NCBI GenBank assembly: GCA_963719515.1
Contig: CAVRCJ010000013.1
Span: 32,001 to 96,000 of the forward strand
Direction of reading: 5' to 3'
Length of the DNA stretch: 64,000 nt
From: an uncultured cyanobacterium
GTDB lineage: Bacteria; Cyanobacteriota; Cyanobacteriia; CAKZMO01
Shown: one piece after another, positions 1,123 through 53,956 of the stretch
Layout of the letters: each line of letters starts with the position of its first letter
Numbering within the stretch: the stretch's first letter is position 1
The notes under the pieces: model-generated
What the model was told of the DNA's origin: nothing
The model's input: the letters and a program-made list of their open reading frames with translations, nothing else
The model's database searches: none
Made by a program: the position numbers and the translations under genes

Positions 1123-1514
1123 GTGACATCCTCCCGACGCTGACAGCAAGCTGTACAGCGCGGGCTTCCTCAGTGACTCCCAGCTATTGCCGAGACATAT
1201 CCTGAGATAGGTTTATACTCCGCCTGATGCCCCACGGCAGAGTTTTGAATTTTCATCTCCGCGAGGGAGGATACGCACTATGTGTCGCAGATACATTTGC
1301 AAACTGAGGAACGGGTGACTTGCAGCTTTCGCCTACGGGCCCGTCACACTCTTTGCGGGGTGTATCACCTTGCTATCTCTATCATACCAACTGCTAGCCT
1401 CAGCGCTGAGCGCACTATCCGCTGTGCATCATTTTGCGGGCGCACTTCGGCTAGCGCGACTCTCATCCCGACGCTCACCCTGACGGGTAGAGCGCGGGGC
1501 TTCTCGTCTAGTCG
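1123..1514 (-). mobile_element. Non-autonomous IS200/IS605 derivative (392 bp) related to the element at 27892
   Basis: Both subterminal hairpins CCCG-CGCT..AGCG-T-CGGG present; right end TCAC; left flank TTAG; retains tnpB tail (AVGHQA..SAIAGSH*-like); tggTATGAT -10. Confidence 0.85.
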
Positions 1515-1677
1515 CTAAATCGTTCATATGAATGCGCTCCAAATATTAGTCGTAGATTAAAATCCTGTCAAAAGACAGGCTGTCAAACCCAGCCAATGGG
1601 CTCGATATTGCCGCAGGACCATCTATTGCCGCAGGACTATCTAAGGGCCTAGAGCGCATCTTGGAGACATTAAGACA

Positions 1678-2856
1678 TCACTCCGCTGCCTCGGATGGAT
1701 CGCTAAAGGCAGGGTTTTGGACAAACGTTTCGTCTGTGAGACTGTGTAGAAACGCCAGCACATCTGCCCGTTCCGCGTCCGTTAGCTTAAAGCCCACTAC
1801 AAAGATGCTCTTCAGAGGACTCTCGCTGCCCACGCCAGCATATTCACCCTCAGAGATGGTGCGGCCCGCAGCAGCGTAGTGATCGAGGGCCTCTTCCAGC
1901 GTGGCGACGCTGCCATCGTGCATGTACGGAGCCGTGAGGGCAATGTTGCGTAACGTGGGTGCCTTAAAGTGACCCATGTCCTCCGGGTGCTGGGTAATCT
2001 CCTGGACGCCAGTATTGTTGGGTGGGTAGGCGCCGCTGCCGTCGATGTTGTAGAGGCCGGTGTTGTGGAAGGCGATCTCTTGGAACGCTAGCCGCTCATG
2101 GACCGTCGAATCGGAAAAGTTGAACCCGCTGTGGCAGTGGAAGCACTCTAGCCGCTCGCTGTTGAACAGCGCCTCGCCTCGCTTAGCTGAAGCCGAGATA
2201 GCGTTGGGGTCACGGCCATAACGATAGCGATCGTAGGGCGAACTGGCCGAGATCAGCGTGCGCTCAAAGCTGGCGATCGCCTGGGTCAAGTTTCGAATAC
2301 TGATTTGGTCCGCTGCCGGGTCCTCTGCAAACGCTGCGGCAAATTGCTCTGCGTAGCGCGGGTCCTCTCCCAGCATTGTCAGAATGTCCTGCTCACGCCC
2401 CACCATGCCCATTTCCGTTGGGTGCTCTCCAAAAATAGGCACCAGCATCTGAGATTCTAGGTCTCGCATCAGCGGATTGGCCCAGGTAAGCACCGAGCTG
2501 TAGGCCACGTTGGTCAGGCTCATAGCGTTGCGGGGATGGTGCTCCTCGGTTGCACCCACGCTGACTCGCTTACCGTCGGTAAATGCCAGGGACTGCAGGT
2601 GGCAGGTAGCGCAGGAAAACTCGCCAGTAGAAGAGAGCTGCGGCTCATAGAACAAGCACCGCCCCAGCTCTACCTTTGCCGCTGACATAGGATTATCTTC
2701 AGGGACAACCGGCTTAGGTAGCCAATCCGGAATATCCCAAGAGTAATCGGTTACTGAGAGCGCTGGCGGCTCGGCAGCCACGACATTGCTCAGCATGACT
2801 GCCAGCCCAAAAGTCAGCAGCCCAGTTACGAGGTAAGATAGCCCGCGTTTCAGCAC
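1678..2856 (-). CDS. mbnH: Di-heme cytochrome c peroxidase-like enzyme, MbnH/MauG family
   Basis: Two CxxCH motifs (CATCH, CFHCH), FKAPTLRNIALTAPYMHDGS, signal peptide; directly downstream of an mbnP-like gene. Confidence 0.8.
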   Translation of the reverse strand: MLKRGLSYLVTGLLTFGLAVMLSNVVAAEPPALSVTDYSWDIPDWLPKPVVPEDNPMSAAKVELGRCLFYEPQLSSTGEFSCATCHLQSLAFTDGKRVSVGATEEHHPRNAMSLTNVAYSSVLTWANPLMRDLESQMLVPIFGEHPTEMGMVGREQDILTMLGEDPRYAEQFAAAFAEDPAADQISIRNLTQAIASFERTLISASSPYDRYRYGRDPNAISASAKRGEALFNSERLECFHCHSGFNFSDSTVHERLAFQEIAFHNTGLYNIDGSGAYPPNNTGVQEITQHPEDMGHFKAPTLRNIALTAPYMHDGSVATLEEALDHYAAAGRTISEGEYAGVGSESPLKSIFVVGFKLTDAERADVLAFLHSLTDETFVQNPAFSDPSEAAE

Positions 2857-2859
2857 AGC

Positions 2860-3840
2860 TTACTCCATGCGAAAGAACGTTTGACCAGAGGACGGTCTCT
2901 CGGCGTGAGAGAGCCCAAAGTTGTTGAGAATTCCCCTACAATCGGCATCTTCTGGGGAAGACATGCAGCCTAGGGGGGTATCGGCTTCATTCTGGGTCAA
3001 ATCATTTTCTGAGACCAAGGCCTCCACATCAGCCACAATGACGTTTTGGCTGGGGTCAAACCCGGTGAACATGAACCGCGAGCGGTTGGGCTGGTTGCAC
3101 AGCGTCGGTTGAAGGCTGTCGCCTTCGATCTGGCAGCCGGTACTGCCCAGGTGGATGAGAAAGCCCTGCGCCATAGTGTGGCCTTGTCCACCAGCATGAT
3201 GACCGTCGCCGTGGGTGCCATGTTCCTGACCGTGCCCCGCCGCAATTTCTGTGGAGGATAGGCTGCGCACCTGCGGCCCTACCGAAGTCGGCAAGCTAGT
3301 GCTCATCACTTCGTTCTCTAAGTCGATGCGGACAAACTTATAGCCCCCCGCCCAGTTCCACCACATGGAGGACACATTGAGGGGCGAAGGCGCGAGGGTC
3401 ATATCGTCGTGGTTGAGGCTGAAGGGGACGCCCAAGGTGAATGTGACGCCAGTGTAATTACCGGGCGGGACCGTACCGACCACTGCGGTGCGGGTTTCTG
3501 GGGTGCCGTTGCTGCAGTCGCCGGTTTGGTCTTCAAAATCTAGCAGGGCGACGGATTCATGCTGCCAGACGCCGTCTTGCTCCAGCATCACGGGAACAAC
3601 GCTGCCACTTTCGTCAATCAGCGCCACGTCCGAGATATAGAAACGGAAGTCGGTGGGGGTAACGGTGGCGCTGCTGGTTCCCAGCCCAGAGTAGCTAGAG
3701 CCGCAGGTGAACATTTCATCGCCTACCATTCCCTGAAACTGAATCGTGACGGGTTCATTCGCCTGAGCGGCCTGGCCGGCAACTAAGGGGGCGATCGCCC
3801 CAAGCAGCACAAGTCGAGCAGCCTGAATTAGCTTTGACAT
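2860..3840 (-). CDS. mbnP: MbnP-family copper-binding periplasmic protein with His-rich insert
   Basis: DFRFYISDV, ALLDFED, FTLGVP..LNH, MWWNWAGGYKF, HLGSTGC, GCMS motifs; signal peptide. Confidence 0.8.
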   Translation of the reverse strand: MSKLIQAARLVLLGAIAPLVAGQAAQANEPVTIQFQGMVGDEMFTCGSSYSGLGTSSATVTPTDFRFYISDVALIDESGSVVPVMLEQDGVWQHESVALLDFEDQTGDCSNGTPETRTAVVGTVPPGNYTGVTFTLGVPFSLNHDDMTLAPSPLNVSSMWWNWAGGYKFVRIDLENEVMSTSLPTSVGPQVRSLSSTEIAAGHGQEHGTHGDGHHAGGQGHTMAQGFLIHLGSTGCQIEGDSLQPTLCNQPNRSRFMFTGFDPSQNVIVADVEALVSENDLTQNEADTPLGCMSSPEDADCRGILNNFGLSHAERPSSGQTFFRME

Positions 3841-4204: not shown

Positions 4205-5602
4205 CTGGTAGACGGGAAGTCCCGCGCTGTATGCGCAGCATCAGCGTCGGGATGAAAGGCGCGTGAGCCGTAGGCGAATAATTAAGGAGCGGCGCACTAC
4301 TCCTTAACAAGGCTATAATCGAAGTGTGTTGACCTTGAACTACTCCTACAGAATTTATCCGTCTGTTGAGCAGGAAGCCCGTATGGTCTGTTGGCTTGAG
4401 ACCTGTCGCGGCGTCTATAACTATGCGTTGCGCGAACGCAAGGACTGGGTAAAGTCGAGAAGCTGCGTAGCTAATGCCTGCTCGCTTCAGTCGGAGTACA
4501 TCATTGCGGCGGACGCGCCATATCCTGACTATTACAAACAGCAAAATGCGCTGACTGCGGCTAAGAAGATATTTCCTCACCTGAAGGACGTGCAGTCTCA
4601 GGTGCTTCAAGAGCCTATTCGCAGGGTAGAGGCAGCATTTGCTGCGAGGAAGGAGAGAGGTCACGGTTTTCCCCGCTTCAAGAAGTTTGGGCAGTACCGC
4701 TCGTTCCTCTTTCCGCAGTTCAAGGAAAACCCGGTGACGGGTAGCCAAATCAAGTTGCCTAAGCTGGGCACGATGCGCATCGTTCTGCACCGACCTATCC
4801 CTGATGGATTCAAAGTAAAGACGGTGCGCATAATCAAAAAGCATTCAGGGTGGTACGCTACCGCGAGTATTCAAGCTGATGTCAATGTTCCTGATGCCAT
4901 CCCTGCTGGGGACAGCATTGGTATTGATGTCGGGCTTGAGTATTTCCTGTCCACTTCCAACGGTTTGCAGGTAGAGCGCCCGCGCTTTTTCGGTAAGCTG
5001 CACCGCAAGCTTAAATTGCTGCAACGCAGGCTGAAGAATAAGCAGCGGGGCTCGAATAACCGCGCCAAGCTGATTGGAAGAATTGGACGGGTACATGAGC
5101 AGATAGCAGCTTGCCGCCTTGACTGGCAATTCAAGCTGGCCCACAAGCTGTGTGACCAAGCCCAGATCATCTTCGTAGAAGACCTTGACCTTCGCATCAT
5201 GGCGAAAGGGATGCTGGGTAAACACACTCTTGATGCTGGCTTGGGGCAGTTCATAAACCAGGTCTTGCCGTGGGTGTGCTTCAAGCGCGGCGTCTATTAC
5301 GGCAAGGTTGACGCTTATGGTACTTCTCAGGAGTGCCCTGACTGCGGCGCTGTGGTCAAAAAATCGTTGGGCGATCGCGTTCATCGGTGTCATGAGTGTG
5401 GGTCGCTCAAGCCGAGAGATATTGCCGCTGCTCAAGTCATCAACGCCCGTGGAATTTCGGGTACTCAAATTGCCTGTGGAGTCGAGGTAGCGGGGATGTG
5501 GGAAGCCATATCTAGCCAACTGGCTGCGAAGCAGGAAGCTCATCGGGTGACCGATGAAGCCCGCGCTCTATCGCATCAGCGATGAGCGTCGGGAGTATTC
5601 AC
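4205..5602 (+). mobile_element. IS1341-type (IS200/IS605) element, tnpB only
   Basis: Left-end hairpin follows target TTAA (4201-4204); right-end hairpin ends in TCAC at 5602; TATAAT just before tnpB. Confidence 0.9.
4326..5585 (+). CDS. tnpB: RNA-guided endonuclease TnpB
   Basis: YRIYP N-terminus; RuvC motifs GIDVG, FVEDL, PRD; Zn finger CPDC..CHEC. Confidence 0.92.
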   Translation: MLTLNYSYRIYPSVEQEARMVCWLETCRGVYNYALRERKDWVKSRSCVANACSLQSEYIIAADAPYPDYYKQQNALTAAKKIFPHLKDVQSQVLQEPIRRVEAAFAARKERGHGFPRFKKFGQYRSFLFPQFKENPVTGSQIKLPKLGTMRIVLHRPIPDGFKVKTVRIIKKHSGWYATASIQADVNVPDAIPAGDSIGIDVGLEYFLSTSNGLQVERPRFFGKLHRKLKLLQRRLKNKQRGSNNRAKLIGRIGRVHEQIAACRLDWQFKLAHKLCDQAQIIFVEDLDLRIMAKGMLGKHTLDAGLGQFINQVLPWVCFKRGVYYGKVDAYGTSQECPDCGAVVKKSLGDRVHRCHECGSLKPRDIAAAQVINARGISGTQIACGVEVAGMWEAISSQLAAKQEAHRVTDEARALSHQR

Positions 5603-29134: not shown

Positions 29135-29167
29135 GCAATAATGATAGCATATTGACATCAGAACGAC

Positions 29168-39828: not shown

Positions 39829-39863
39829 AGTTATCAAAGATATTAGAAACCCTGCGATTGACT

Positions 39864-40940
39864 ATGGCGATTACAGCAACGCCCCTCACAAAACTGGCCT
39901 ATCAGACCGTTCAGCAAGGGAAGAGCTACTTCGGGCTCGCCCACAAAATGCTGAGCAGTCAGCTTAGAACTGTGGTAGCCCCGCCGTCTGAGAGCAGCGA
40001 CCCTACGCCGATTTCTCCTCAGCTGCTGCTGGAGCTCAACCAGCGTATGAACCAGCTCTTAGACCAAGACTGGGCCGACGCTGAGCGGGAAATTTACTCG
40101 ACAGACATTCTGTTTGATAATCCCTGGGACGACTTCCTTCGCTATTACCCCATGATTTGGGCCGATCAGCCCCAGGTCTGGGATCGCGTCAACGGTAAGC
40201 GCTTCGAGGAGTTCTCGCCTGGTATTGCCACTGAGGATTACCCCAAGTACTACGCCCGCAACTTCCACTACCAAACCGACGGCTACCTCAGCGACCATTC
40301 CGCCAACCTGTATGACCTGCAGGTGGAGATTTTGTTCAACGGCACCGCCGACGCCATGCGCCGCCGCATTTTAGCGCCTCTGAAGCAGATGATGGCTGAG
40401 TCTGGCTTCGAGAACGCCGCTCGCACGCGAGTTTTGGACATCGCCTGCGGCACCGGGCGCACCCTGCGCTTTTTGCGGGATGCCTTTTCCAAAGCCTCCC
40501 TTTACGGCATCGACCTGTCCCCTGCTTATCTACGTAAAGCTAACCAGATGCTCTCGCGCATTCCGGGCGAGCTGCCCCAGCTGATGCAGGCCAATGCTGA
40601 GTCTTTGCCTTACGTTGATAACTTCTTCCAGGCGGTTACCTCGGTGTTCATGTTCCATGAGCTGCCGGCCCCCGTTCGGCAGAACGTCATCAACGAAGCC
40701 TACCGAGTAGTGCAGCCCGGCGGCACGTTCATCATCTGCGATTCGATTCAGCTGAGCGATTCGCCGGAGCTGAAGGTGTCGATGGAGAATTTCTCGGCCA
40801 TGTTCCACGAGCCTTTCTACCGCAACTATATCGAGGATGACCTGAATGGTCGCCTTGAGCAGGCTGGGTTTGAGGTGGTGGAGATGCAGGTTCACTTTAT
40901 GAGCAAGTACTGGATTGCCCGTAAGCCTGTTGAGGGTTAA
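39864..40940 (+). CDS. Class I SAM-dependent methyltransferase
   Basis: LDIACGTG, NFHYQTDG, FMFHELP. Confidence 0.9.
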   Translation: MAITATPLTKLAYQTVQQGKSYFGLAHKMLSSQLRTVVAPPSESSDPTPISPQLLLELNQRMNQLLDQDWADAEREIYSTDILFDNPWDDFLRYYPMIWADQPQVWDRVNGKRFEEFSPGIATEDYPKYYARNFHYQTDGYLSDHSANLYDLQVEILFNGTADAMRRRILAPLKQMMAESGFENAARTRVLDIACGTGRTLRFLRDAFSKASLYGIDLSPAYLRKANQMLSRIPGELPQLMQANAESLPYVDNFFQAVTSVFMFHELPAPVRQNVINEAYRVVQPGGTFIICDSIQLSDSPELKVSMENFSAMFHEPFYRNYIEDDLNGRLEQAGFEVVEMQVHFMSKYWIARKPVEG

Positions 40941-41004
40941 ACCGGCTGCTTGGGGGCAGGCTCCCTGCATATGACAATGTCCGTTGTGGGGTAAAGCGAT
41001 CGCC

Positions 41005-41039
41005 GTAGGGCGGGTTAGCGTCAGCGTAGCTCACCCTAC
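41005..41039. repeat. REP-like palindrome
   Basis: GTAGGGCGGGTTAGCGTCAGCGTAGCTCACCCTAC; similar to 54671-54702. Confidence 0.6.
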
Positions 41040-42001
41040 GGTTTGACTGACGAAAGAGCCTGCCGCAGATCCCCCCCGTGCTCTACTAACAACCGATCGC
41101 CCTCCTCAGCGCTCACGTCAGCCCAATGCATCAACAGCGCCAGCTTCACCCGGCGGTGGCTTTGCTCTAGCAGGTCTGCCGCTTTTTTATTGTCTAACTC
41201 TGTCAGGTCCATTAAGATGCGCAGGGCACGGTCGTACAGCTTCTGGTTAGTGACCGCCACGTCAATCATCCGGTTGCCGTAGACCTTTCCTAGCTGCACC
41301 ATCACCCCGGTGGAGATCGTGTTGAGCACCAGCTTAGTGACAGTGCCCGCCTTGAGGCGCGTCGAGCCCGCCAGCAGCTCTGGTCCCACCAGCAGGCGAA
41401 TGTCTACATCTACCGCTATCGGCACCTGCGCTTGCGGAACGCAGGCCATAAAAATGGTGGTGGCCTGCCGCTCTTGGGCGGCTTCCAAGGCCCCGTGGAC
41501 GTAGGGGGTAGTGCCCCCAGCGGTGATGCCCATCACCACGTCGTTTTCGCCAACCAAGGCGTGGGCGATCGCCTCCGCCCCGTCGTCGGCCCGATCTTCC
41601 AGTCCTTCCGACGAGCGCACCAGAGCCGCCTTTCCACCGGCCAGAATTCCCTGCACCATTTCAGGCGGGGTACAAAAGGTGGGGGGACATTCGGCGGCGT
41701 CCAGCACTCCTAGCCGTCCGCTGGTGCCTGCGCCGACGTAAAACAGCCGTCCGCCCTGGCGCAGAGCCGCAGCGGTCTTCTCAATGGCGATGGCGATCGC
41801 CTCTCGGGCGGCGGCAACGGCCTCTAAGACGCAGGCGTCTTCTTGGTTAAAGAGATCGACCAGCTCTAGGGGCGTGAGCTGATCTAGGGTTTGGCTGTTG
41901 GGGTTGACCTGCTCGGTGAGCAAGTGGCCGCGCGCTGTAGGTGGGGGTAGCACAAGATGGGACGAAGGGGATGGGGGCACTGACTCCATAGATAACTCCA
42001 T
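41036..42001 (-). CDS. murQ: N-acetylmuramic acid 6-phosphate etherase
   Basis: GAGTSGRLGVLDAAECPPTF, GSTRLKAGT. Confidence 0.95.
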   Translation of the reverse strand: MELSMESVPPSPSSHLVLPPPTARGHLLTEQVNPNSQTLDQLTPLELVDLFNQEDACVLEAVAAAREAIAIAIEKTAAALRQGGRLFYVGAGTSGRLGVLDAAECPPTFCTPPEMVQGILAGGKAALVRSSEGLEDRADDGAEAIAHALVGENDVVMGITAGGTTPYVHGALEAAQERQATTIFMACVPQAQVPIAVDVDIRLLVGPELLAGSTRLKAGTVTKLVLNTISTGVMVQLGKVYGNRMIDVAVTNQKLYDRALRILMDLTELDNKKAADLLEQSHRRVKLALLMHWADVSAEEGDRLLVEHGGDLRQALSSVKP

Positions 42002-42052
42002 ATAAAAACAAAAAGCGCTAAAGTACAGGGGCGGTGACAGAATTCTACTACG

Positions 42053-43270
42053 ATGGCCTCGAAACGTTTCTCCAAGGCCGGATTCCAGTGGCTATCGCGG
42101 GCCGCTATTCTGCTGGCTGCGGGGGTTGGCGGTACGATGGCCTACTTGACTTGGCAGCAGCGCAGCGCTCCCCCCATCCAGGTTAGAAGCCTCGTTGCCG
42201 AGCGGGGTAGCGTCGAAGAGAGCATCAGCGAGAGCGGCGTGGTTCAGCTCGCCAGCCAGCAGACTCTCCAGTCTCCGGCGGAGGGGGCTGTGGACCAGGT
42301 TCTGGTGCGAGCGGGAGAGCCCGTTGAGGCGGGGCAGGTGCTCATCGTGCTGCGCAATGCCGAACGAGAGACCGCCACCAGTAACCAGCAGCTGCAGGTT
42401 GAGCAGCAGCGCGTCAGCCTTAAGCGGGCCCAAGAGCGTATCGCCGAGTCGCAGGAGCAGCTTGCGGCTTACCAAAGCGACCTAGAGCGCTTCCGTGGGT
42501 TAGAAGAGGCGGGTGCTATTCCCTACAACGACATTCGCGATATTGAAGACAACATTCGCCGCACGGAAACCACCCTGGAAGATGCAAGAAGCGAAGCCGA
42601 GGGAGCTAATCTAGAGCTGGCGCGACTGCAAACTGAGAACCGCCGCATCGCTCAGGAAATGGAAGAAACTATCATTACAGCGCCCATCAGCGGCCAGGTG
42701 CTAGACGTGGGGGTGAAAGACGGGGATGGGGTAGAGCTGCGCACGGAGCTGCTAACCCTGGGAGACCCGTCCCAAGAGCTGGTGAGCCTAGAGCTCTCTA
42801 CCCTGGACGCGGCCCGCATTAGCCTGGGGCAGGCGGCACGGATAAGCGTCATCGGCCCGAACCCAGAAATCTTTGAGGGGCAGGTCGCGCAGATCTCTCC
42901 CCTGGCGCGATCGCCCGAAGAGGGCGGAGGTCAAGAGACCCAGGTGACCGTCCCGACGCTGGTGCGGCTCAGTGAACCTACGCGGCTCCTGATTCCGGGA
43001 AGCCAGGTGAGCGTCGAGATCATTTTACAGGCTGAGGAGAACGTCACGGTTTTGGGCACCGAGGCCATTCAGCGCGACGGCGGGGAGCCTTTTGTTTGGG
43101 TTCTAGACGAGGCGCAGCAGGTGCAGCAACGGCCCGTCCAAACTGGGCTAGAAGGGTTGACCCAGGTAGAAATTGAGTCTGGATTGAGTCCAGGAGAAAC
43201 GGTGGTGGTGCCACCGCCGGACCAGGCCCTTGCGCCCGGCGCTGCCGTTGTTGTTGATTCTAGGTCGTAG
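42053..43270 (+). CDS. Efflux membrane-fusion (periplasmic adaptor) protein
   Basis: N-terminal TM, lipoyl halves, coiled coil, ITAPISG. Confidence 0.9.
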   Translation: MASKRFSKAGFQWLSRAAILLAAGVGGTMAYLTWQQRSAPPIQVRSLVAERGSVEESISESGVVQLASQQTLQSPAEGAVDQVLVRAGEPVEAGQVLIVLRNAERETATSNQQLQVEQQRVSLKRAQERIAESQEQLAAYQSDLERFRGLEEAGAIPYNDIRDIEDNIRRTETTLEDARSEAEGANLELARLQTENRRIAQEMEETIITAPISGQVLDVGVKDGDGVELRTELLTLGDPSQELVSLELSTLDAARISLGQAARISVIGPNPEIFEGQVAQISPLARSPEEGGGQETQVTVPTLVRLSEPTRLLIPGSQVSVEIILQAEENVTVLGTEAIQRDGGEPFVWVLDEAQQVQQRPVQTGLEGLTQVEIESGLSPGETVVVPPPDQALAPGAAVVVDSRS

Positions 43271-43277
43271 GACAAAT

Positions 43278-44462
43278 ATGGGGCTATCTTCTGCCGATCT
43301 ATTGCGACTGACGACCCACTCCCTCCGGAGCAACCTGCTGCGATCGCTGCTGTCGATGTCGGGGGTGTTTATGGGGGTGGCCGCCGTGGTAGCGACGCTG
43401 CAGGTGGGCAGCATCAGCCGCGCCGTGATTGCCGAAGAGCTAGACAAACGGGAAGCGCCCCAGGTTTCCCTCTATCCGCGCTGGCAGCCGGGAAAGCCCT
43501 ATCAGCCTCTGCAAACAGACGACCTCGCCTTCTTACAGCAGCGGCTGGTGGGGGCGCGCGCCCTCAGCGCCATCGACTGGGCCGGGACGCGGCTAGCGCT
43601 GTTTCACGATCGCGAGGCCAATGCGTTTATGCTGGCGGTCTCCCGAGAGTTTTTTACCACCTCAGGGCTGGGGCTGCTGGTAGGTCGCTTGTTTACCGAG
43701 GCCGATTTTGAGCGCTACCGCTCGGTTGTGGTAATTGACCAGTTTTTGGCGGAGAGCCTATTTGATGAGCTGGGCGACGCTATTGGCGAACAGGTCTATT
43801 TCGGCGGTCGCCCGCTCGTGGTGGTGGGAGTCTTGGAAACCAAGCTGGAAGAGGAGGAAACCCCTACAGGGAAAGTCTACATCCCGCTCTCCCTCCACCA
43901 CGCATTAGAGGGCCATCAGCGCATCAACGCCCTCCGCCTGCGGCCTCAGTCTTTAGAAACTATCGAGACCCTCGAAGAGCAGGCGGAGCAGCTGTTGCAG
44001 CAGCGATCGCCTGACCGCCGCTTCTACGTCTTTAACAACGTTGAGGATATTCAGGAGCGTCAGCAGGTGCTGCAGCTTGCCGCCCGAGGGCTGGCCGCCG
44101 TGGGGCTAATTTCCCTGATGGTGGGCGGCGTTGGCATCGCCAACATCATGCTGGCGTCGGTGGCCGAGCGCACTGCGGAAATCGGCCTGCGGCGAGCGAT
44201 CGGGGCGACGCGGCAGGAAATCATGCTGCAGTTCATCTTGGAAGCCGCTGTTTTGAGCGTTATGGGGGGAGCAGCGGCGGTTATTGTTGTCCACGGGCTG
44301 ACGCGGGTGGTGGCCGACCAGTTTGAGCTGCCGTACCGGTTTGAGGGCCGCAGCGCTGCCGTGGCCCTAGGGGCGGCGATCGCGGTGGGGGTGGGGGCCA
44401 GCCTGCTGCCCGCGCTGCAGGCCAGTAAGCTAGACCCGGTGCAGGCCTTGAGGTCAGGGTAG
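43278..44462 (+). CDS. MacB/FtsX-type ABC permease
   Basis: RSLLSM.GV, GGVGIANIMLASVAERTAEIGLRRAIGA, LDPVQALR. Confidence 0.9.
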   Translation: MGLSSADLLRLTTHSLRSNLLRSLLSMSGVFMGVAAVVATLQVGSISRAVIAEELDKREAPQVSLYPRWQPGKPYQPLQTDDLAFLQQRLVGARALSAIDWAGTRLALFHDREANAFMLAVSREFFTTSGLGLLVGRLFTEADFERYRSVVVIDQFLAESLFDELGDAIGEQVYFGGRPLVVVGVLETKLEEEETPTGKVYIPLSLHHALEGHQRINALRLRPQSLETIETLEEQAEQLLQQRSPDRRFYVFNNVEDIQERQQVLQLAARGLAAVGLISLMVGGVGIANIMLASVAERTAEIGLRRAIGATRQEIMLQFILEAAVLSVMGGAAAVIVVHGLTRVVADQFELPYRFEGRSAAVALGAAIAVGVGASLLPALQASKLDPVQALRSG

Positions 44463-44482
44463 GGCGCTCGCATCGGGATATT

Positions 44483-45370
44483 GTGCTAGAGGATAGTCAA
44501 CAGTTGAGTGATGTTGGGGAGCTAAAGTTGCAGTCCTTTGCCAAACCCTACCGAGGGCGGCTCGCCCCGACGCCCACCGGCCACCTGCACCAGGGCCACG
44601 CCAAAACCTTTTGGACTGCTCAGCAGCGGGCCGCTCAGCCCGGCGGGGCGCTGCTGCTGCGCCTTGAAGACCTAGACCGCGATCGCTGCAAGCCCCAGTA
44701 CACCCTAGACCTGCTGGAAGATCTGGCCTGGTTTGGCTTTCGCTGGCAGGAGGGCCCAGACCTGGGCGGAAACTACGGACCCTATATCCAAAGCGATCGC
44801 CAGGCCTTCTACCGGCAGGTGTGGCAGCAGCTCAACCAGGCCCAGGCGATTTACCCTAGTCCTCACTCCCGCAAGGATGTGGCAAGGGCCTTAACCGCCC
44901 CCCACGAAGGCGATCGCCAAGCTATTTTTCCTGCCCGGCTCCGCCCTGCAGCCTGGCAGCCGGCCCGTGAACCCGGCGCGGTGAACTGGCGCTTTCGGGT
45001 ACCCGATGGCGAGACTATCGCCTTTGTAGACCAAAACTCGGGGCTTCAGGCTTTCACCGCTGGTCAGGACTTTGGCGACTTCCTCGTTTGGCGGCGAGAC
45101 GGGTTCCCCAGCTACGAGCTGGCGGTGGTGGCCGACGACCACGCCATGGCCATTTCTGAGGTGGTGCGCGGCGAGGATTTGCTGCTGTCAACGGCAAAGC
45201 AGCTGTTGCTCTACCGCGCCTTGGGGTGGGAGGCCCCCGCGTTTTACCACTGCCCTTTGGTGCGCGATGAGCAGGGGAAGCGCCTGGCTAAGCGGGATGG
45301 GGCCAGGAGTCTGCGATCGCTGCGGCAGCGGGGGGTGGCGCCGGAGGAGATTCGGGCAGGGTGGCGATAA
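44483..45370 (+). CDS. gluQ: Glutamyl-Q tRNA(Asp) synthetase
   Basis: GRLAPTPTGHLHQGH, LRLEDLD, VVRGEDLL, RLAKR; no anticodon-binding domain. Confidence 0.88.
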   Translation: MLEDSQQLSDVGELKLQSFAKPYRGRLAPTPTGHLHQGHAKTFWTAQQRAAQPGGALLLRLEDLDRDRCKPQYTLDLLEDLAWFGFRWQEGPDLGGNYGPYIQSDRQAFYRQVWQQLNQAQAIYPSPHSRKDVARALTAPHEGDRQAIFPARLRPAAWQPAREPGAVNWRFRVPDGETIAFVDQNSGLQAFTAGQDFGDFLVWRRDGFPSYELAVVADDHAMAISEVVRGEDLLLSTAKQLLLYRALGWEAPAFYHCPLVRDEQGKRLAKRDGARSLRSLRQRGVAPEEIRAGWR

Positions 45371-45427
45371 GGGCGATTGGGATGACGCAGTGCCGCTAGA
45401 GCCTGCTGGGCCGCGCGAGGTTGAGAG

Positions 45428-46462
45428 CTACCGGACTAGGCTGCCGGCAAGCTGCGGCGTCCGGTAATCTTGGAGCCATAGAACAAACTGCTGCAGTCCC
45501 TCCGAGAGAGAGGTTTTGGGCTCAAATCCCACAGCCTCAGTCAGACTGTCTATGTCAGCGTAGGTTTCCAGAACGTCCCCCGGCTGCATGGGCAGCATAT
45601 TCTTGCGCGCGGTGAGCCCCAAGCAGCGCTCTAGGGTTTCGATAAAGTCCAGCAGCGTGATGGGCTGGTGGTTGCCGATGTTGTAGATACGGTAGGGGCC
45701 CTGGCTGGAGCTGGGGTCGGGATGCGCGCCACACCAGCTGGGGTCGGGCTGGGGGACCTGGGGAATCAGACGCAAAATACCGTCGACAATGTCGCCGACG
45801 TAGGTAAAGTCGCGGCGCATTTGGCCGTGGTTATAGACGTCGATGGGGCGATCTGCCAAAATAGCTTCCGCGAACCTATAGGTGGCCATGTCGGGGCGGC
45901 CCCAAGGGCCGTAGACCGTGAAGAAACGCAGCCCCGTGGTGGGAATGCCATAAAGATGGCTGTAGGAGTGGGCCATCAGCTCGTTGGCTTTTTTGGTGGC
46001 GGCGTAGAGACTGAGGGGATGGTCGACGTTGTGATTTACGGAGAAGGGCATTGCGCGGTTAGCGCCATAGACGGAGCTTGAGGAGGCAAAAATCAGGTGC
46101 TCAGTTGAGTAGGTGCGGCAGCCCTCTAGCACGTTGAGAAAGCCCACCAGGTTGCTGTCGGCGTAAGCGTGGGGATTTTCGAGGGAGTAGCGGACGCCCG
46201 CCTGCGCGGCGAGGTGAATGACGACCTTGGGCCGATAGGTGGCAAATAGCCAGTTCATCTGGGGGCGATCGCTCAGATCAAGTTTGTGGAAGCGGAACCG
46301 AGGATGCCCGCTGAGCTGGGCTAGGCGATCGCGCTTTAGCTGCACGCTGTAGTAGTCGTTGAGGTTGTCCATACCCACCACGGTGTGGTCTTGGGCGAGC
46401 AGGGCCTTACAGACGTGGTAGCCGATAAATCCAGCGGCTCCGGTAACCAAAATCTGAGTCAT
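45428..46462 (-). CDS. NAD-dependent epimerase (UDP-glucuronate 4-epimerase-like)
   Basis: TGAAGFIG, HLAAQAGVRYS, YAATKK, YGPWGRPDMA. Confidence 0.92.
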   Translation of the reverse strand: MTQILVTGAAGFIGYHVCKALLAQDHTVVGMDNLNDYYSVQLKRDRLAQLSGHPRFRFHKLDLSDRPQMNWLFATYRPKVVIHLAAQAGVRYSLENPHAYADSNLVGFLNVLEGCRTYSTEHLIFASSSSVYGANRAMPFSVNHNVDHPLSLYAATKKANELMAHSYSHLYGIPTTGLRFFTVYGPWGRPDMATYRFAEAILADRPIDVYNHGQMRRDFTYVGDIVDGILRLIPQVPQPDPSWCGAHPDPSSSQGPYRIYNIGNHQPITLLDFIETLERCLGLTARKNMLPMQPGDVLETYADIDSLTEAVGFEPKTSLSEGLQQFVLWLQDYRTPQLAGSLVR

Positions 46463-46764
46463 AATGGGCGCTTCAATAGGGTTTGCGTTGAGGTAGCGCT
46501 TTCCTGTCGTGACGAGTGAGAGCCTAAGCGTAGGGGGGAATACTTGCGTAAACTTTGAAACTACGGCAGGTGGTTGGAAGGACGAGGGCAGCGGGTGTTT
46601 GGTTTCCTGCGATCGCCCAAGGCAAGGTGAGCCCGCCCGCCAAGCCGACCCGCCAAACGCTTTAGCGGGCATACCGGAGGGGGTACGCCCGCTAGAGGCA
46701 GTTGTGCTATTGAGTACTTTCTACCGCAGGTGGCCCGTGAGCAGCCGACTTTCCAAAACTGTCG

Positions 46765-47625
46765 CTAGGACGGCACGTTGCGAACGCGGGACCGATACGC
46801 CGCACTGTTCAACCCGTCGCCGACGTTGGCCGTAGCGGGGTCAATCTGCGCGTTGAGATCTTGAACGCGGCTGCCTGCAGAGGGATGGGTACTCAAGAAA
46901 GCGGGGGTAGAGGAGCGGCCCACCAGCTTAGCCATAAAGGCCGGCATTGCCGAAGGCGCGTATCCCGCCGCCCGAAGGTTAGCTAGTCCCAAATTGTCGG
47001 CCTCTCGCTCATCGCTCCGGCTGTTGGGACGCCGCAGCGCTAGCTCGACGCCAATGTTGGCAAGCGCGCTCTGGTCAACCCCAGCAGCGGTCATCAACCC
47101 CCGGGCGATCGCCGCCTCTCGCATTTGCTCCAGCGCATGCCGTCCGGCGATGTGGGCAATCTCGTGGGAGACGACGCTTGCCAGCTCAGCCTCATTATCG
47201 GCAGCCCGCATGAGGCCAGTGGTGACGTAGACGTAGCCCCCCATGGTGGCAAAAGCGTTGATGGCGTCGTCTTGAACCACTTGAAAGGTATAGGGAATAT
47301 TGGAGCGGGCGCTGTGGGGCACCAGCCGCTGGCCGATGCTGTTGACGTAGCGGTTGATTTCAGCGTCGCGATAGAGCGATACCTGTCCGCCGACGAGCTG
47401 CTGGTTGATTTGTCCGCCGAGGCGGACCTCTTGGCGATCGGACATGTTGGAAAGCTGGATGACCTGTATGCCCCTGAAAATCAGGTCCAAAAACGGGATT
47501 GCGGGAGTGGCGGTTGGCGTTCCTATAACAATACTCACCGCTAAGAGCGTTGAGATCGCTCCGTAGATCCAGCGGCGGCGTAGGGTCGTGAAGAGGTCGC
47601 TTGGTCGCATATCGCTTGGTCGCAT
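46765..47625 (-). CDS. M48-family metallopeptidase
   Basis: INAFA..GG, HEIAH, EREAD, FLSTHP. Confidence 0.92.
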   Translation of the reverse strand: MRPSDMRPSDLFTTLRRRWIYGAISTLLAVSIVIGTPTATPAIPFLDLIFRGIQVIQLSNMSDRQEVRLGGQINQQLVGGQVSLYRDAEINRYVNSIGQRLVPHSARSNIPYTFQVVQDDAINAFATMGGYVYVTTGLMRAADNEAELASVVSHEIAHIAGRHALEQMREAAIARGLMTAAGVDQSALANIGVELALRRPNSRSDEREADNLGLANLRAAGYAPSAMPAFMAKLVGRSSTPAFLSTHPSAGSRVQDLNAQIDPATANVGDGLNSAAYRSRVRNVPS

Positions 47626-47823
47626 TGCAGGTACGTTCTTATTCTAGGGGTGGGGCCGGGGGAAGCGATCCGCCTCCAGGTCAAATTCTAAGCTGTCACA
47701 GTATTTTGTGTGCCGATGCTCCATGCCAAAAGCATTTCTCAGCCGAGATAAGTCTGTGCCGATATCAAAGGCGTTTTGGTTTAGGATGTTGTCGGTGCTG
47801 ACGCAATTTCTGCCGACGCGATT

Positions 47824-49578
47824 TTGATGGTCAAACGCTCAAACGGTTTCCTTGTTTTGGTGGGTTTAGGGTTGCTTATCGCCCTGGCATACGGCGGCTG
47901 GATTATTACTATGGTCGAACCCTCTATATCCCCTGGCCTGCTCAGCGCCCCTTTCCTGCAAAGGCCCACAGCCTCTACGGTCAACGTCGTTTGGTTTACA
48001 GAATTTGAGGGCGATCGCCACCTCGTCGAATACGGCGACACCCTCGATCAGCAGCAGGCCACCACAACGCGGCTCTCCCGCACTCGGGAAGACCCGCCCG
48101 TGCTCGAGGGTGCAGGCGCGGAAGACAGCTCCCCCATCCGCCGCGTCATTTGGCGGCATGAGGCCACCGTTGCGGGCCTGTCCCCCGGCGAGCGGGTGCC
48201 CTACCGAGTGGTGAGCGAGGGAGAGCGCCGCCTGGAGAGCGAGACCTACACGCTTGCCCCCTTGCCTTCCGTAGGCCAGCCGCTAAAAATCTTGCTCACC
48301 TCAGACCACCAGCAAAAGCCCATGACCCCCGCCAACCTGGAAAAGGTGGTGGAAACCGTGGGTCAGGTAGACGCGGTGTTTATGGCGGGGGACTTAGTCA
48401 ATATCCCCGACCGGGCGTCAGAGTGGTTTGACGAGGATGTGTCTTTCTTTAGGGCACTGCAGGGCAATGCCAAAGGAGATTTGACCTACGACGGCGTCAC
48501 CATTCCCTACCGTGGGGGGGCCATTATTCAGTCAGCGCCGCTGTTCCCCGCTGTGGGCAACCACGAGGTCATGGGCCGCCTGTCCTCAAAGGGACTCGGA
48601 GAGCAGTTTAATGACCCAGTGCCTCGAGCGATCGCCGCCCAGCGCTATGAGGCGCAGGCTAGCATTGTCAATCCTACGGGCGACCCGGCGGTTCGGGGCG
48701 CTTGGCTCAAAGACCAGTCGTTCAACATCGACACCTACCAAGAGATTTTCACCCTGCCGGAAGGCCCCGCTGACGGCAAGTACTACGCCACCACCTTCGG
48801 CGACCTGCGGCTGGTGTCCCTCTACATCACCAATATCTGGCGCAAACCCAGCCTTGGCCCCAATATTCGGGGCCGCTACCGCGAGCGCGATGAGGATTTG
48901 GATAACCCAGAAAACTGGGGCTACGGCCAGCACATCTTCGAGGCGATTAGTCCCGTTAGCCCGCAGTACGGCTGGCTTCAGCAGGAGCTGGCCAGCCCCG
49001 AGTGGCAGCAGGCCCGCTACCGCGTCGTTATGTTCCACCATCCGCCCCACTCTTTGGGGGATAACATCGTGCCGGCCTACGCCGATCCGGTGCAGATTAT
49101 CGACTACCTCCCTGACGGCGAAACTATCAAGTCGGTGCGCTACGAATACCCCCAAGGCGCTGACTACCTGGTGCAAGTGCTGCCGCTGATAGAGGCTGCA
49201 GACGCCGACCTGATCTTCTATGGCCACGACCATATCTGGAACCGGTTCGTCTCGCCGGGGGGGCTGCACTTTCTAGAGACCTCTAACGTCGGCAACACCT
49301 ATGGAGCCGCGTGGAAAACCAAGCGGCGCGACGTGCCTATTGGGTTCAAAGAGAGCTATCCACCCTTGGGCGACCCCAATGGGCTAGAGCCGGTGGTGCC
49401 GACAATCGCGCCCCTCCTAGACGATGACGGCTCGCCCCAGCCGTTTGTGGCCAGCAACGAGATTACGGTGTTCAGCATTTTGGATACTGAGCAAGGTACC
49501 GTGAGTAGCTATCGGTTTGACACAAGGAAGCCGGACTCATCCGTGGTCAAATTCGATGAGTTTGCGCTGAAGCCGTGA
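47824..49578 (+). CDS. Metallophosphoesterase with FN3-like N-domain
   Basis: TSDHQ, AGDLV, GNHE, HH, GHDH. Confidence 0.88.
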   Translation: MMVKRSNGFLVLVGLGLLIALAYGGWIITMVEPSISPGLLSAPFLQRPTASTVNVVWFTEFEGDRHLVEYGDTLDQQQATTTRLSRTREDPPVLEGAGAEDSSPIRRVIWRHEATVAGLSPGERVPYRVVSEGERRLESETYTLAPLPSVGQPLKILLTSDHQQKPMTPANLEKVVETVGQVDAVFMAGDLVNIPDRASEWFDEDVSFFRALQGNAKGDLTYDGVTIPYRGGAIIQSAPLFPAVGNHEVMGRLSSKGLGEQFNDPVPRAIAAQRYEAQASIVNPTGDPAVRGAWLKDQSFNIDTYQEIFTLPEGPADGKYYATTFGDLRLVSLYITNIWRKPSLGPNIRGRYRERDEDLDNPENWGYGQHIFEAISPVSPQYGWLQQELASPEWQQARYRVVMFHHPPHSLGDNIVPAYADPVQIIDYLPDGETIKSVRYEYPQGADYLVQVLPLIEAADADLIFYGHDHIWNRFVSPGGLHFLETSNVGNTYGAAWKTKRRDVPIGFKESYPPLGDPNGLEPVVPTIAPLLDDDGSPQPFVASNEITVFSILDTEQGTVSSYRFDTRKPDSSVVKFDEFALKP

Positions 49579-49645
49579 GGTCTGATTTTGCAGAACAAAC
49601 CCTACACCGCCAGCTTTTGAACAACCCTCAGGTCAGCAAGGCTTC

Positions 49646-50410
49646 TCACTCTTCCTCAGCTGAGGCGATCGCACGGGCTACATGCTCCCCCACCCGCGCC
49701 GACCCGACCGGCGAAGGATGAACGCGGTCCTCGTCATACGCCGTCAGATCCTCCGTAGACAAGACGTCCCCTGCCGAAACAAACCATACCCCTGCAAGGC
49801 CCTCTGCCATCCGCATCAGCCGCCCATTGTGCAGGGCAATCTCATCGTTGCACTGCTCAAAGCCAAAGCGGGCATCGTCCGGCATAGCGTAATAGCCCAC
49901 GTACATCACCTGAGCGCCGCTAGCGGTTACGGCGCGCACAAAGTCTGGAATCTCGCCCGAGAGCCCATCCTCGCTAATCATTTCCTCTAGCTGAGCGCCA
50001 CAAGTCGCGCAGGCACAATCGCCGACCAGGTCGTTGGCCCCGCCGTTCATCACAACCCAACCCCAACCTTGGTCGTCGTACTGCTGGCGAATATCGTACC
50101 CCGCCTCAGCGGCTTCTCTATCGGGGTGGGAGACATGAGCGCCAGACACAGCGCTGTTGGTCACAGGCCGGTTTAGCGTCTGGCCGATAACGTCAGGAAT
50201 AGACCGATTCTCCTCGGCGTTCCAGTCCAAAATCGAGTCTCCGATGGCTAGAATTGGCTGCTTTTGTGGCTGCGCGGCGGTGCGGCTGCTAGAGGCAGAA
50301 CGCGGGGTATCGGCGGTGGACGTCGCTTGGTCTGCAATACCCGAACAGGCTGAGAGGCCTGCTAGCGCGGCGAAGTTTGCCAGCACTAAGCCCATGATGA
50401 GTTGCTGCAT
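49646..50410 (-). CDS. SGNH/GDSL hydrolase lipoprotein
   Basis: LSAC lipobox, GDS, GGAND, DRVH. Confidence 0.88.
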   Translation of the reverse strand: MQQLIMGLVLANFAALAGLSACSGIADQATSTADTPRSASSSRTAAQPQKQPILAIGDSILDWNAEENRSIPDVIGQTLNRPVTNSAVSGAHVSHPDREAAEAGYDIRQQYDDQGWGWVVMNGGANDLVGDCACATCGAQLEEMISEDGLSGEIPDFVRAVTASGAQVMYVGYYAMPDDARFGFEQCNDEIALHNGRLMRMAEGLAGVWFVSAGDVLSTEDLTAYDEDRVHPSPVGSARVGEHVARAIASAEEE

Positions 50411-50472
50411 TGGAGATGTTCGAGTGAAAGTCTAGGGCATAGAATACCCCTGTCGGCCTCTAATGCTAGCGG

Positions 50473-51423
50473 CTAACGTCGCTCAACGCCGTGGATGCGC
50501 ATCAAATCCGATACCGTCTCGCAATAGGGCGGAATATTGAACGTGCTTGGATTTACCGGATTCTCGTAGGTGAAATGGCGATACTGAAGGCAAAACCAGT
50601 CCCACTCTGCCATCTGAATTCGAAACAGCGGCACAATGACTCTGGCAAAGGTCAGCAGCGGCAGCTGGGCCGCCGGTACCGACAGGCCAAAGTAGCGGCA
50701 CAGCTCTCGAATCGCGCCGTTGACCGTGATTTGCGGGTTGCCCAGCACCATCTGCCGCATTGACCCTCGTGAGACGGGATTGCGCACGAGGTAGACCATC
50801 ACTTGGGCGATGTCGCGGGCGTGGATGTAGTGAAAGCTGCCGTCGATGTTGAAAAAGCGAATTAGGCCAACCCAGCGGGTCACGTCCCGTAGACCTGCTG
50901 ATAGATGAGACATGGGCTTTTGGGCATCGCCGCCAAACACTAGTGTCGGAAAGACTACCGTGGTTTTAGCCGCGATCGCCAGCTTCCGCAGCTCCCGGTG
51001 ACATTCGTACTTAGTGCGGATGTAGTCAGTGCCGAGAGTCTCAGCTTCTTCCAAAAGCCGGTTATTCTTATCGAGAATACTGGCCGTGGAGAAGTAAATC
51101 ACCTGACGGCAGCGCTCTACATCCAGCAGCTTCAGCAGCGCTAAGGTTTGGGTGACGTTGACGGACTGGGTCTGCTGCGGGTCACCCCAGGCGGCGGCGG
51201 TGAGGATGGCGACGTCGATGGTCTTGAGCAGCTCGGCCTGCTCCTCAATATGCAGAATGTCCCCTTTGACGAGATGGACGCCAGGGCGATGGCCGATGTT
51301 TACTTTGAGCTTGGCGGGGTTACGCACCAGCAAAAATAAATCGTGCTCCGTTTGCCGCATCAGCGCCGCCACAATATAGTGGCCAATGCAGCCGCTGGCC
51401 CCGGTGATAAAAATCCGCGCCAT
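50473..51423 (-). CDS. NAD-dependent epimerase/dehydratase family protein
   Basis: TGASGCIG, YIRTK; 2 nt downstream of hemE. Confidence 0.88.
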   Translation of the reverse strand: MARIFITGASGCIGHYIVAALMRQTEHDLFLLVRNPAKLKVNIGHRPGVHLVKGDILHIEEQAELLKTIDVAILTAAAWGDPQQTQSVNVTQTLALLKLLDVERCRQVIYFSTASILDKNNRLLEEAETLGTDYIRTKYECHRELRKLAIAAKTTVVFPTLVFGGDAQKPMSHLSAGLRDVTRWVGLIRFFNIDGSFHYIHARDIAQVMVYLVRNPVSRGSMRQMVLGNPQITVNGAIRELCRYFGLSVPAAQLPLLTFARVIVPLFRIQMAEWDWFCLQYRHFTYENPVNPSTFNIPPYCETVSDLMRIHGVERR

Positions 51424-51425
51424 GG

Positions 51426-52487
51426 CTAGACGCAGGCGAGCAGCTGGTCCGCCTGCTTAGCCGTCTCAAAGAAGTAGCGCACGTTGTCCTCGGGGGTGTC
51501 TTTGTGGACGCCGTGGCCCAGGTTGAGGATGTGGCCCGTAGGTCCGGCCTTGCGGATGGTGTCGAGGATGCGATCGCGGATGAAGCCGTGGGAGCCGTAG
51601 AGGACGCCGGGGTCAAGATTGCCCTGCACCTTCATGTTTGGCCCTAGCCGCCGCCGCGCGTCCGCCATGTCGACGGTCCAGTCGACGCTGATGATGTCGG
51701 CCCCAGACTGGCCCATGCGCTCCAGCAGGCCGCCGCTGCCGCTGATCAGCAAAATCAGCGGGGTGTCGGGGTGGGTCTTCTTGACTTGGCTAAACACCCG
51801 CTGCTGGTAAGGCAAGGCGAAGGTGTCGTAGTCCTGCGGGGACATCTGACCGGCCCAAGAGTCGAACATCTGCACCGCCTGAGCGCCGCTGTCGATTTGG
51901 TAGCGGACGTAGACGGCGATCGCGTCGGCTAGCTTCTCCAGGAAGCTGTGAAGCATGGCGGGCTCGGAGAAGGCCATGTTCTTGATTATTGAGTAGGTTT
52001 TGGATCCTTTTCCTTCCACGGCGTAGGCCGCCAGCGTCCAGGGAGCCCCCACAAAGCCCAGCACCGCCGCGTCGTTCTTCACCTCGGCCCGCAGCGCCTG
52101 CAAAATCTCGCGCACAAACCCCAGGGACTCCTCGGGCTGCAGCGATCGCAGTGCGTCTACCTGAGCCTGGGTGCGGATGGGCTCATCCATGATTGGCCCT
52201 TTGCCCTCGGCCACGTCCATTTCAATGCCGATGCCGGGCAGCGGGGTGACGATATCAGAGAAGAAAATGACGCCGTCAGGGTGGAAAGCGCGCCAGGGCT
52301 GCAGGGAGATTTCTACAGCCACGTCGGGAATTTCAGAGCGATCGCGAAAAGAGGGGTATTTTTCCCGCAGGTCTCGGTAGGCCTTCATGTAGCGCCCGGC
52401 CTGTCGCATCATCCACACGGGGGGCCGCTCTAGGGTTTCCCCACGGGCAGCGCGCAGCAGTAACGGAGTTTGAGAGGATGCGCTCAT
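51426..52487 (-). CDS. hemE: Uroporphyrinogen decarboxylase
   Basis: [28 protein letters not shown]. Confidence 0.97.
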
Positions 52488-52779
52488 GAACTGTGGCCTT
52501 TTATAAAGTCTTTAGAAAATCCATTTGTTAGCTTATCACCGCTTGATAGAGCTTTCGGCGGTGGATGTCAATGTCGTTACAATCTGGCATCAAGACGGCA
52601 GCGGAGGGCGATCGCCATTTGCCCAAAAGATTTAGATAAGATACATTGGCTAAATCGCTGAGCTGCACATTTCCCTTATGAGCAATATTGCAGCAGCAGT
52701 CTGTCAACCTCAGCAAGCTGCGCCCAGCAAATCACGCCTAGCAAGTCGCGCGCTGTCGCTGTAGAAGTAATTATGGCCT

Positions 52780-53481
52780 ATGCCTAGCGTATGGCGAAGA
52801 CCCTCAGTACTTCCAATTGACTGGCTTTCGCAGGCCAGGCTAGATGCGCTGCAGTTTACGCCTGCACACGAAGAAAAATGCTTCAATTCTATCCACGGCG
52901 GGGCTGGCTACCGGTGGCAGCACGCTCAGGTTTACCGGGGATATGTCCTTTGCTTAGTTACAACCGGTGATTCGGGCGGCTACGTGTACTTGGTCGTGAG
53001 CCCATACTATGAACGCCATCACCCCATTATTGGGTTTAACTTTGACGAAGTCAGCGCTGTGGCAGAGGCTAAGGCCAAAGTTGATGCTCAGAGCCCAGTG
53101 GGCTATCAGTGGACCCGGGCCGAAATTTATCGGGGGCATGTGGTTTGCTCCGTTGAGGTTGACGACTCAGGCGGCTGGACTTACCTAATTGTCAGCCCCC
53201 ACTACCATCAAGATTTTCCGATCGTTGGCGTCAACGCCAAAGCAACCACCGCTCTAGCCTGTGCGACAGTTCAAATCGATGAGCGCTACGAAAAGCGGGC
53301 CCTGCAGGACTATCTCCTCAAGCACCCAGAAGCACAGTTTCTTGACGACGGCGCTATTGCTCGCCTCGCCGGTATCCCGCCCCATGAACTCCATCCTCGC
53401 GGGCGTTCGGGTCGGCCCTTCCGCCCGGTTCATTTAGAACGTCAGCTCCCGACGGATGTCTATTTTAACGATGGGCCGTGA
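52780..53481 (+). CDS. Hypothetical protein with a tandemly duplicated ~65-aa domain
   Basis: GYRW..A.VYRG.V.C....DSGG..YL.VSP.Y....PI.G.N occurs twice. Confidence 0.75.
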   Translation: MPSVWRRPSVLPIDWLSQARLDALQFTPAHEEKCFNSIHGGAGYRWQHAQVYRGYVLCLVTTGDSGGYVYLVVSPYYERHHPIIGFNFDEVSAVAEAKAKVDAQSPVGYQWTRAEIYRGHVVCSVEVDDSGGWTYLIVSPHYHQDFPIVGVNAKATTALACATVQIDERYEKRALQDYLLKHPEAQFLDDGAIARLAGIPPHELHPRGRSGRPFRPVHLERQLPTDVYFNDGP

Positions 53482-53507
53482 CTTTGCTGGCCTGTAGTCT
53501 GCCTCTA

Positions 53508-53956
53508 GTGACATACTCCCGACGCTCATCTTTTAGATAGAGCGCGGGCTTCTTGGCTCACGCACCACAATTTAATGGATGCCGCGCAAGAAGGTGTCCT
53601 GCTTCATCTGGTCCTGTCTAGTTACGCAGCAAGCCGTGCAACCCCGATTAGATCCCATCGACAGGCAATTTGTTTAATGTCCAGGCAATGACCAACCCCA
53701 GACAGTGACGAGTATTCAATTTCCAGCTACGGTTTCTACCGTCTGCACTGTTCACCAGCCAAGGGCTGTACGTTTGTGTCAGGATAGCAGGCCGCCGCCA
53801 TGAAATAGTTTGAGCTTGGTTCAATTGTACCCTTTGCTCGCCTCGGCGCTGCTCTTAATTGCCGCCTTCGGCATCCAGTCAAGGGCGCACCTCGACTCGC
53901 TCGCTTACATCCCGACGCTGATGCTGCGCATACAGCGCGGGGCTTTCACGAACTAG
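53508..53956 (-). mobile_element. Non-autonomous IS605 derivative (449 bp), copy 2
   Basis: Near-identical to 38118-38566; left flank TTAG; internal TACAAT. Confidence 0.9.

Follow-up and report, generated by a model that had tools for sequence, protein, structure and literature searches.

We have analysed a stretch of 64,000 nucleotides (called the window in what follows, G000:C13:32001-96000) from the cyanobacterial genome G000, which holds two full tnpB elements of the IS605 family and five short elements related to them. The octamer GCGATCGC, which we take to be a cyanobacterial mark, is abundant in G000, and the TnpB relatives of this genome are mostly cyanobacterial. An initial annotation had described the five short elements as derivatives of one kind that had lost the middle of tnpB. 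All five, as well as both full elements, the TCAC right ends and five 16-nt guides, were found at the positions claimed, but the five are not one class: those at 1123, 38118 and 53508 belong to two multi-copy families, called A and B, while those at 20646 and 26286 are single. The latter two are remnants of tnpB elements. A simple loss of the tnpB middle does not describe the other three, as the interiors of families A and B match no local tnpB.

Genome-wide there are 53 full-length copies of the 1123 type (family A) and 18 of the 38118/53508 type (family B), both with a mean identity of 99.0%, and these numbers are far beyond chance. The family A copy of the window is a gene-less IS605 element of 392 nt on the minus strand (1123-1514; 391-393 nt over the 53 copies). 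To its left stands the target-adjacent motif (TAM) TTTAG (1515-1519, -), which is found at 47 of the 53 copies, with TTAG at all of them. The left-end hairpin (1467-1499, -) is, by sequence comparison, the same as in the full element at 27892. It is followed by a predicted extended -10 promoter, TG-n-TATGAT (1381-1389, -, with the hexamer at 1381-1386), by a non-coding leader not derived from a local tnpB (1245-1378, -), and by the omega-RNA scaffold (1123-1243, -), which consists of a 5' hairpin with a pseudoknot loop, a middle stem, the right-end hairpin and TCAC. The fold of the scaffold has a z of -4.3, and a structure of the leader is unsupported (z -0.29). The host flank at 1107-1122 (-) is the predicted guide. 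Among the genomes searched, family A is restricted to its genus (two of four congeners), and its pattern gave 0 stretches in the metagenomes. Its short tnpB-tail frame is frameshifted in G004, and its 5' hairpin is common to two distant gene-less elements; comparison of its leader with that of a sister mini-element gave a weak consensus only (8 pairs, 1 covarying). Next to the copy lies a short SLH/OprB porin open reading frame (ORF; 361-1122, -) that spans 75 of the 372 OprB model positions and has its likely start codon 15 nt downstream of the element, whose outward promoter could read into it.

The first family B copy (38118-38566, -) is a gene-less IS605 element of 449 nt (449-450 nt over the 18 copies). 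It has a predicted -10 box (38434-38439, -), a conserved leader domain (38325-38425, -) in which a near-invariant core at 38355-38390 lies within a covarying helix, and an omega-RNA-like scaffold of the clade of the full element at 4205 (38118-38313, -). The second copy (53508-53956, -) stands after TTAG and has the same parts, with the -10 box at 53824-53829, the leader core at 53745-53780 and the scaffold at 53508-53703.

The full elements are F1 (4205-5602, +) and F2 (27892-29374, -). F1 is a tnpB-only IS605-family element after TTTAA, with its ORF at 4326-5585, and F2 is, from the likeness of scaffold and ends, the predicted TnpB donor for family A. Both TnpBs retain the three RuvC acidic motifs, and 15 of the 16 F2 copies have a long ORF with all three. 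The F1 family has 11 full copies in G000 with 85-96% identity, whose flanks are TTAA and TTAG and track two left-end types; the F1-family TnpB may read a relaxed TAM. Long ORFs were found in 6 of 12 checked copies, two of these six after TTAG. Altogether, a TnpB domain is matched 81 times in G000 and the Y1 transposase family 14 times, nine of the latter matches being near full length and without stops. Three F2 relatives overlie tnpA matches, and the one inspected has ends nearly identical to those of family A. In F2 itself, a 60-codon ORF (29168-29350, +) is divergent from tnpB at the place where related elements have tnpA; by analogy with the accessible part of bioRxiv 10.64898/2026.09.24.754181, it likely encodes an Arc-type repressor.

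Ends, target motif and mobility

TTAG precedes 70 of the 71 copies of the two families (53/53 in family A and 17/18 in family B), the exception being 38118, which stands after CTAG. The right flank, on the other hand, differs in every one of the 71 copies. A contig of run X1 joins position 1121 to 1514 and omits exactly 392 nt, which is the empty allele of the 1123 copy without target duplication; this evidence is one contig with a depth of 4.1, whose shorter side has 60 letters. For an F2 copy, a paralogous empty site likewise sets the boundary right after TTAG. One pattern matched 107 left ends, and in each of them the final base of the TAM pairs with the left-end base before the hairpin (G-C in 92 and A-T in 15). 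In IS608, the target is chosen by TnpA through DNA-guided pairing, and the pairing seen here is as expected from such a choice. No joint across one of the two family B copies was seen in contigs over 36500-55500, nor was there one across 4205 or 20646, and the four congeneric genomes are too distant or too fragmented for showing empty sites.

Families A and B have near-terminal IS605-type hairpins at both ends and, by six-frame translation, no long ORF. Taking the ends, the TAM, the copy numbers and the empty allele together, both families behave, as judged from sequence, as palindrome-associated transposable elements (PATEs). Two side observations can be added here. Of the 71 copies, 45 are co-oriented with the upstream gene, compared to 45% of control sites (P 0.002, with crude gene calls), and at window positions 17672-17927, where the X1 depth is raised, an X1 contig omits 254 nt, which suggests another small mobile repeat.

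Promoter, leader and scaffold

That three of the short elements keep a left end and a -10 box about 120-130 nt inside it had been claimed before, and this held for 1123, 38118 and 53508, with the hexamers lying 128-134 nt inside the left end. In family A, the box is TG-n-TATGAT, and two sister species keep one at the same place (TG-n-TATACT and TG-n-TATAAT). The TACGAT of 38118 is a single-copy variant, with TACAAT in the other 17 of the 18 family B copies. At 18 family B-type loci, TAnnnT is found 33-66 nt before the leader core in all cases, and is extended by TG in 11; in 3747 intergenic control windows, TAnnnT occurs in 32% and TG-n-TAnnnT in 2%, although the 18 loci are kin, so that this comparison overstates the difference. 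The promoter module common to the two families has 76 matches in G000, namely the 71 copies and five other gene-less loci, and no match in a coding element. It is therefore not the promoter of F1, although the initial annotation had put these boxes where the full element has TATAAT.

We turn next to the leader of family B, which forms a long helix with a near-invariant core. In an alignment of 14 sequences, 89% of the cells pair, and two-sided changes are found at 8 of the 15 pairs. The covariation score of 0.368 was reached by none of 500 shuffles and the pair count by 18 of them; one locus, L023, was excluded from the alignments as not independent, being 100% identical to P0002. It is important to note that the invariance of the core is partly built in, as some rows of the alignment were retrieved with the core pattern. 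A single family B leader folds no better than shuffles (z -0.17). The covariance model of the leader has 21 matches in G000, all gene-less (27 candidates scored), and none in 32 F2-clade coding loci or in F1 and F2 of the window.

Relatives of family B were found in 7 of 400 other genomes by BLAST, in 2 of 400 by the exact pattern and in 4 of 149 by the covariance model, and also in 13 metagenome stretches; taken together, these relatives come from seven other cyanobacterial families. The loci with enough flank mostly have, in this order, TTAG or TTAA, the left hairpin, the -10 box, the leader, the scaffold and TCAC, with no tnpB inside, while some of the inspected loci are truncated and one is without a clear left end. 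One leader-only element (L143) has no scaffold. No viral stretch has the core (0), and no plasmid match was obtained with the element. From these comparisons, family B is apparently an old gene-less lineage present in the seven families.

The leader has no significant match in Rfam. A suspected likeness to the HEARO/IscB RNA was unsupported by searches with the Rfam models, and a likeness to the hammerhead core, seen by eye and put to no tool, was dropped because the stems cannot form. For the window as a whole, the sole match at gathering level is a tRNA, with nothing significant in E-value mode, and neither RAGATH-18 nor HEARO matches the elements at gathering score. In the literature searched, which covers few of the subscription journals, no description of the conserved leader was found.

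The scaffold of family A agrees with that of F2 in 97 of 116 aligned bases, and its 5' hairpin differs from that of F2 on both strands yet pairs. A model with five helices and a pseudoknot, built on nine coding and three gene-less sequences, has 94.2% of its cells paired, with two-sided changes at 13 of 33 pairs. None of 500 shuffles reached this pairing and slid controls gave 34-45%; the structure was drawn from the same sequences, so the slid control leans toward the model. The scaffold of family B is nearest to that of F1 (117 of 150 aligned bases) and has a different 5' hairpin. Its type ends F1-clade tnpB genes of other cyanobacteria in 5 of 26 loci checked.

An intact scaffold with the pseudoknot, ending at the right end, is present in family A and in the single element at 20646. 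The latter (20646-20822, +) is a 5'-truncated F1 remnant, namely the last 177 nt of F1, and it keeps the whole scaffold, with 158 of 162 bases as in F1. It has neither a left end nor a promoter of its own, and so lacks the hairpins at both ends that mark a PATE. It begins exactly after TTAA (20642-20646), which is the target motif of F1, as would result from a clean removal of the left part at the left-end cut site, and it could give a usable RNA by read-through. Just upstream is a gene with TIR and SLOG (LD_cluster2) domains (18235-20340, +), which is possibly a defence gene. The other single element (26286-26550, -) is a decayed remnant, with a left-end-like hairpin, about 110 nt of degenerate tnpB 5' sequence and, of a right end of the F1 type, the final 75 nt. 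The initial annotation had it keeping only a short piece of the tnpB 3' tail and did not mention the hairpin and the tnpB start. Most of its scaffold is gone, namely the main stem as well as the 5' hairpin and the partner of the pseudoknot. It folds no better than shuffles (z -1.16) and likely cannot give a usable RNA.

Guides and the homing reading

The guides are host flanking DNA, and the 71 copies carry 71 different ones. As each guide is the flank beside the insertion, it is predicted to target nothing but the empty site of its own element, and for 1123 this site does exist in the population, as seen in run X1. None of the 71 gene-less guides, and none of 87 when 16 coding guides (F2) are included, has a 12-nt match after another TTAG in G000; phage and plasmid collections lay outside this search. 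In the control, second TTAG-adjacent targets occur at a rate of 4.6% after removal of long duplications (P about 0.04, post hoc), and it should be noted that P was 0.002-0.006 before duplicated stretches of at least 3 kb left the control. This is a weak hint that self-targeting guides are removed. The one guide pair that is shared, by two F2 copies, was considered as a homing event and rejected, as it lies in a long duplication.

The proposal of mobile units of promoter and scaffold fits 1123, 38118 and 53508, where there is mobility and the scaffold pairs are kept, and not 20646, which has no left end, or 26286, where the scaffold is mostly gone. In G000, there are intact genes for both TnpA and TnpB, with ends and a TAM that match. 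The three elements are then probably gene-less IS605 PATEs that would be moved by a TnpA from elsewhere, and whose own omega-RNA would be used by a borrowed TnpB to cut empty sites, with repair restoring the element. In this mechanism, TnpA made by tnpA-bearing elements would move the units, and transcription from the internal -10 promoter would pass through TCAC into the flank, giving an RNA of about 270 nt in family A and 325 nt in family B. TnpB would then trim the 5' part of this RNA, which in the available text of PMC10278001 is shown for its own mRNA. Loading would take place in trans, by the F2 TnpB for family A and by an F1-clade TnpB for family B. The complex would cut TAM plus guide at empty sites, and repair from the occupied chromosome copy would restore the element, that is, homing. 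For Geobacillus TnpB, cleavage of the donor joint has been shown and trans use of PATE omega-RNAs proposed, according to the accessible part of Meers et al. (bioRxiv 10.1101/2023.03.14.532601). With its own empty site as the sole predicted target of each guide, the logic here follows that homing rather than a repertoire. Selfish homing with borrowed TnpA and TnpB is thus our best reading, not a guide repertoire of the host.

Several observations weigh against this reading. The cognate TnpB with the same TAM is a good match only for family A (F2); for family B there is just the related F1-clade scaffold, no coding element in G000 has the family B scaffold itself, and the predicted pseudoknot of family B contains a U-U mismatch. 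The copies are too young for selection tests within the families (about 99% identity). As to the promoter, a bare TAnnnT is no rarity in the control windows (32%, as given above), and a strict -35/-10 scan did not call the family A box. Finally, homing leaves the near-invariant leader core unexplained.

There are two alternatives, neither of which we consider likely. In the first, the RNA is expressed but soaks up or modulates TnpB, or binds another factor, rather than guiding cutting. This would fit a leader core that hardly varies over seven other families and had no match in the coding elements searched, as well as the imperfect pseudoknot and the missing exact coding partner of family B; furthermore, the full F1 and F2 elements, about 27 in number, face competition from about 77 gene-less copies. 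However, ends, TAM and scaffold match the coding partners, most clearly for family A, and the mild scarcity of second TTAG-adjacent targets (0/71 vs 4.6%, with the post hoc P given above) is as expected if such guides are harmful.

The second alternative, to which we give marginally less weight still, is that the elements are DNA-only hitchhikers, moved by TnpA, with the scaffold kept only as a neighbour of the right end and no use of TnpB. In IS608-type elements, TnpA action needs only the end hairpins, the near identity of the copies leaves little selection signal, and 26286 and the scaffold-less L143 show that scaffold loss is possible. Against this, in gene-less relatives from several cyanobacterial families, a -10 box, the leader and the scaffold stems are retained well away from the end hairpins, and the stems have changed on both sides, with many of these changes being of G-U type.

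The scattered, array-like guide repertoire of the initial annotation, taken as a CRISPR-array-like store serving host defence or regulation, is very improbable: it could point to 71 different guides behind two near-constant scaffolds, but the empty allele and the paralogous empty site show that the guides are host flanks, none of the 87 has a TTAG-adjacent 12-nt match in G000 (the search that left phage and plasmid collections aside), no route for foreign spacer uptake can be seen, the population is polymorphic for the sites, and the catalytic motifs are retained in both TnpBs of the window. In G000, no guides were found that had been taken from other sequences or are directed at them, as in CRISPR systems, and the elements give no evidence for a CRISPR-like guide bank.

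Returning to homing with borrowed enzymes, it is tempting to go one step further for family B, although we regard this as a tentative idea that could well be wrong. The family may be a long-lived lineage, spread over the cyanobacteria, that has evolved into a dedicated RNA gene. Its near-invariant leader would be a novel RNA module with a function of its own, which is to draw TnpB away from the mRNA of that protein or else to mature or protect the guide, and in this way dozens of parasites could home with a nuclease that they do not encode.

Related systems and further gene-less elements

The PATEs of Haloquadratum walsbyi, as described in the part of PMC3119063 at hand, are similar in having no terminal inverted repeats, near-terminal IS605-type palindromes and no target duplication, in being too short for a transposase, and in their homogeneous expansion (>90% identity). 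They differ in that the omega-RNA was unknown to that paper, while the present elements have a promoter, a leader and a full scaffold within their ends. The PATE-like IS605 elements of Geobacillus stearothermophilus (bioRxiv 10.1101/2023.03.14.532601) are also gene-less, share ends and are said to encode omega-RNAs for TnpB in trans, with the guide targeting the donor joint; the available text puts forward the trans use by native PATEs as a proposal and describes no dedicated leader domain. In G000, unlike there, two gene-less families outnumber the coding elements.

For standalone omega-RNAs, function in trans was reportedly tested on IscB in the primary study. Such RNAs from systems of the OMEGA kind (obligate mobile element-guided activity) are, like the present elements, mobilised without an effector or transposase gene, with effector loci in the genome (Altae-Tran et al. 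2023, PMC10691335); in the part of that paper available, they are stated to function in trans and their role is called unknown. The central stem of the family B scaffold weakly resembles the RAGATH-18 RNA of IS607 TnpB (PMC11061315, accessible part; Rfam RF03064), but the score of 17.4 bits (E 1.8) is far below the gathering score of 44.9, and the ends here are IS605-type hairpins, not those of IS607.

Already known, as far as the accessible texts go, are thus PATEs carrying omega-RNAs for trans use (Meers et al.) and standalone omega-RNAs (PMC10691335). What appears to be new, on the sequences compared, is the family B lineage with a conserved, covarying leader, for which neither Rfam nor the coding elements searched gave a match. 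In the same texts, the use of native PATE omega-RNAs in trans is proposed rather than tested on native elements. G000 offers a clean test set for this, as the ends and the TAM of 71 copies are known, a likely partner is intact and an empty allele occurs naturally. The conserved leader could reveal how non-coding transcripts compete for a nuclease whose normal substrate is the mRNA that encodes it, and such competition bears on the design of separately expressed TnpB guides.

Beyond families A and B, there is a third gene-less family (G000:C13:184113-184530 and five more copies; of the six, four are at 99% and two at 89%), which resembles family B in its scaffold but not in its leader, is flanked by TTAA, and is present also in G260 and G185. 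Other leader types between the -10 box and the scaffold were seen in further gene-less elements at G000:C7:179.6-180.1 kb and C4:97.9-98.4 kb, and in L212, L214, L221, L225, L067, L172 and L173. An element of G008 carries an rRNA-type boxA; with up to two mismatches allowed, neither family A nor family B has one. Among the gene-less elements, there appears to be a modular exchange of leaders and scaffolds.

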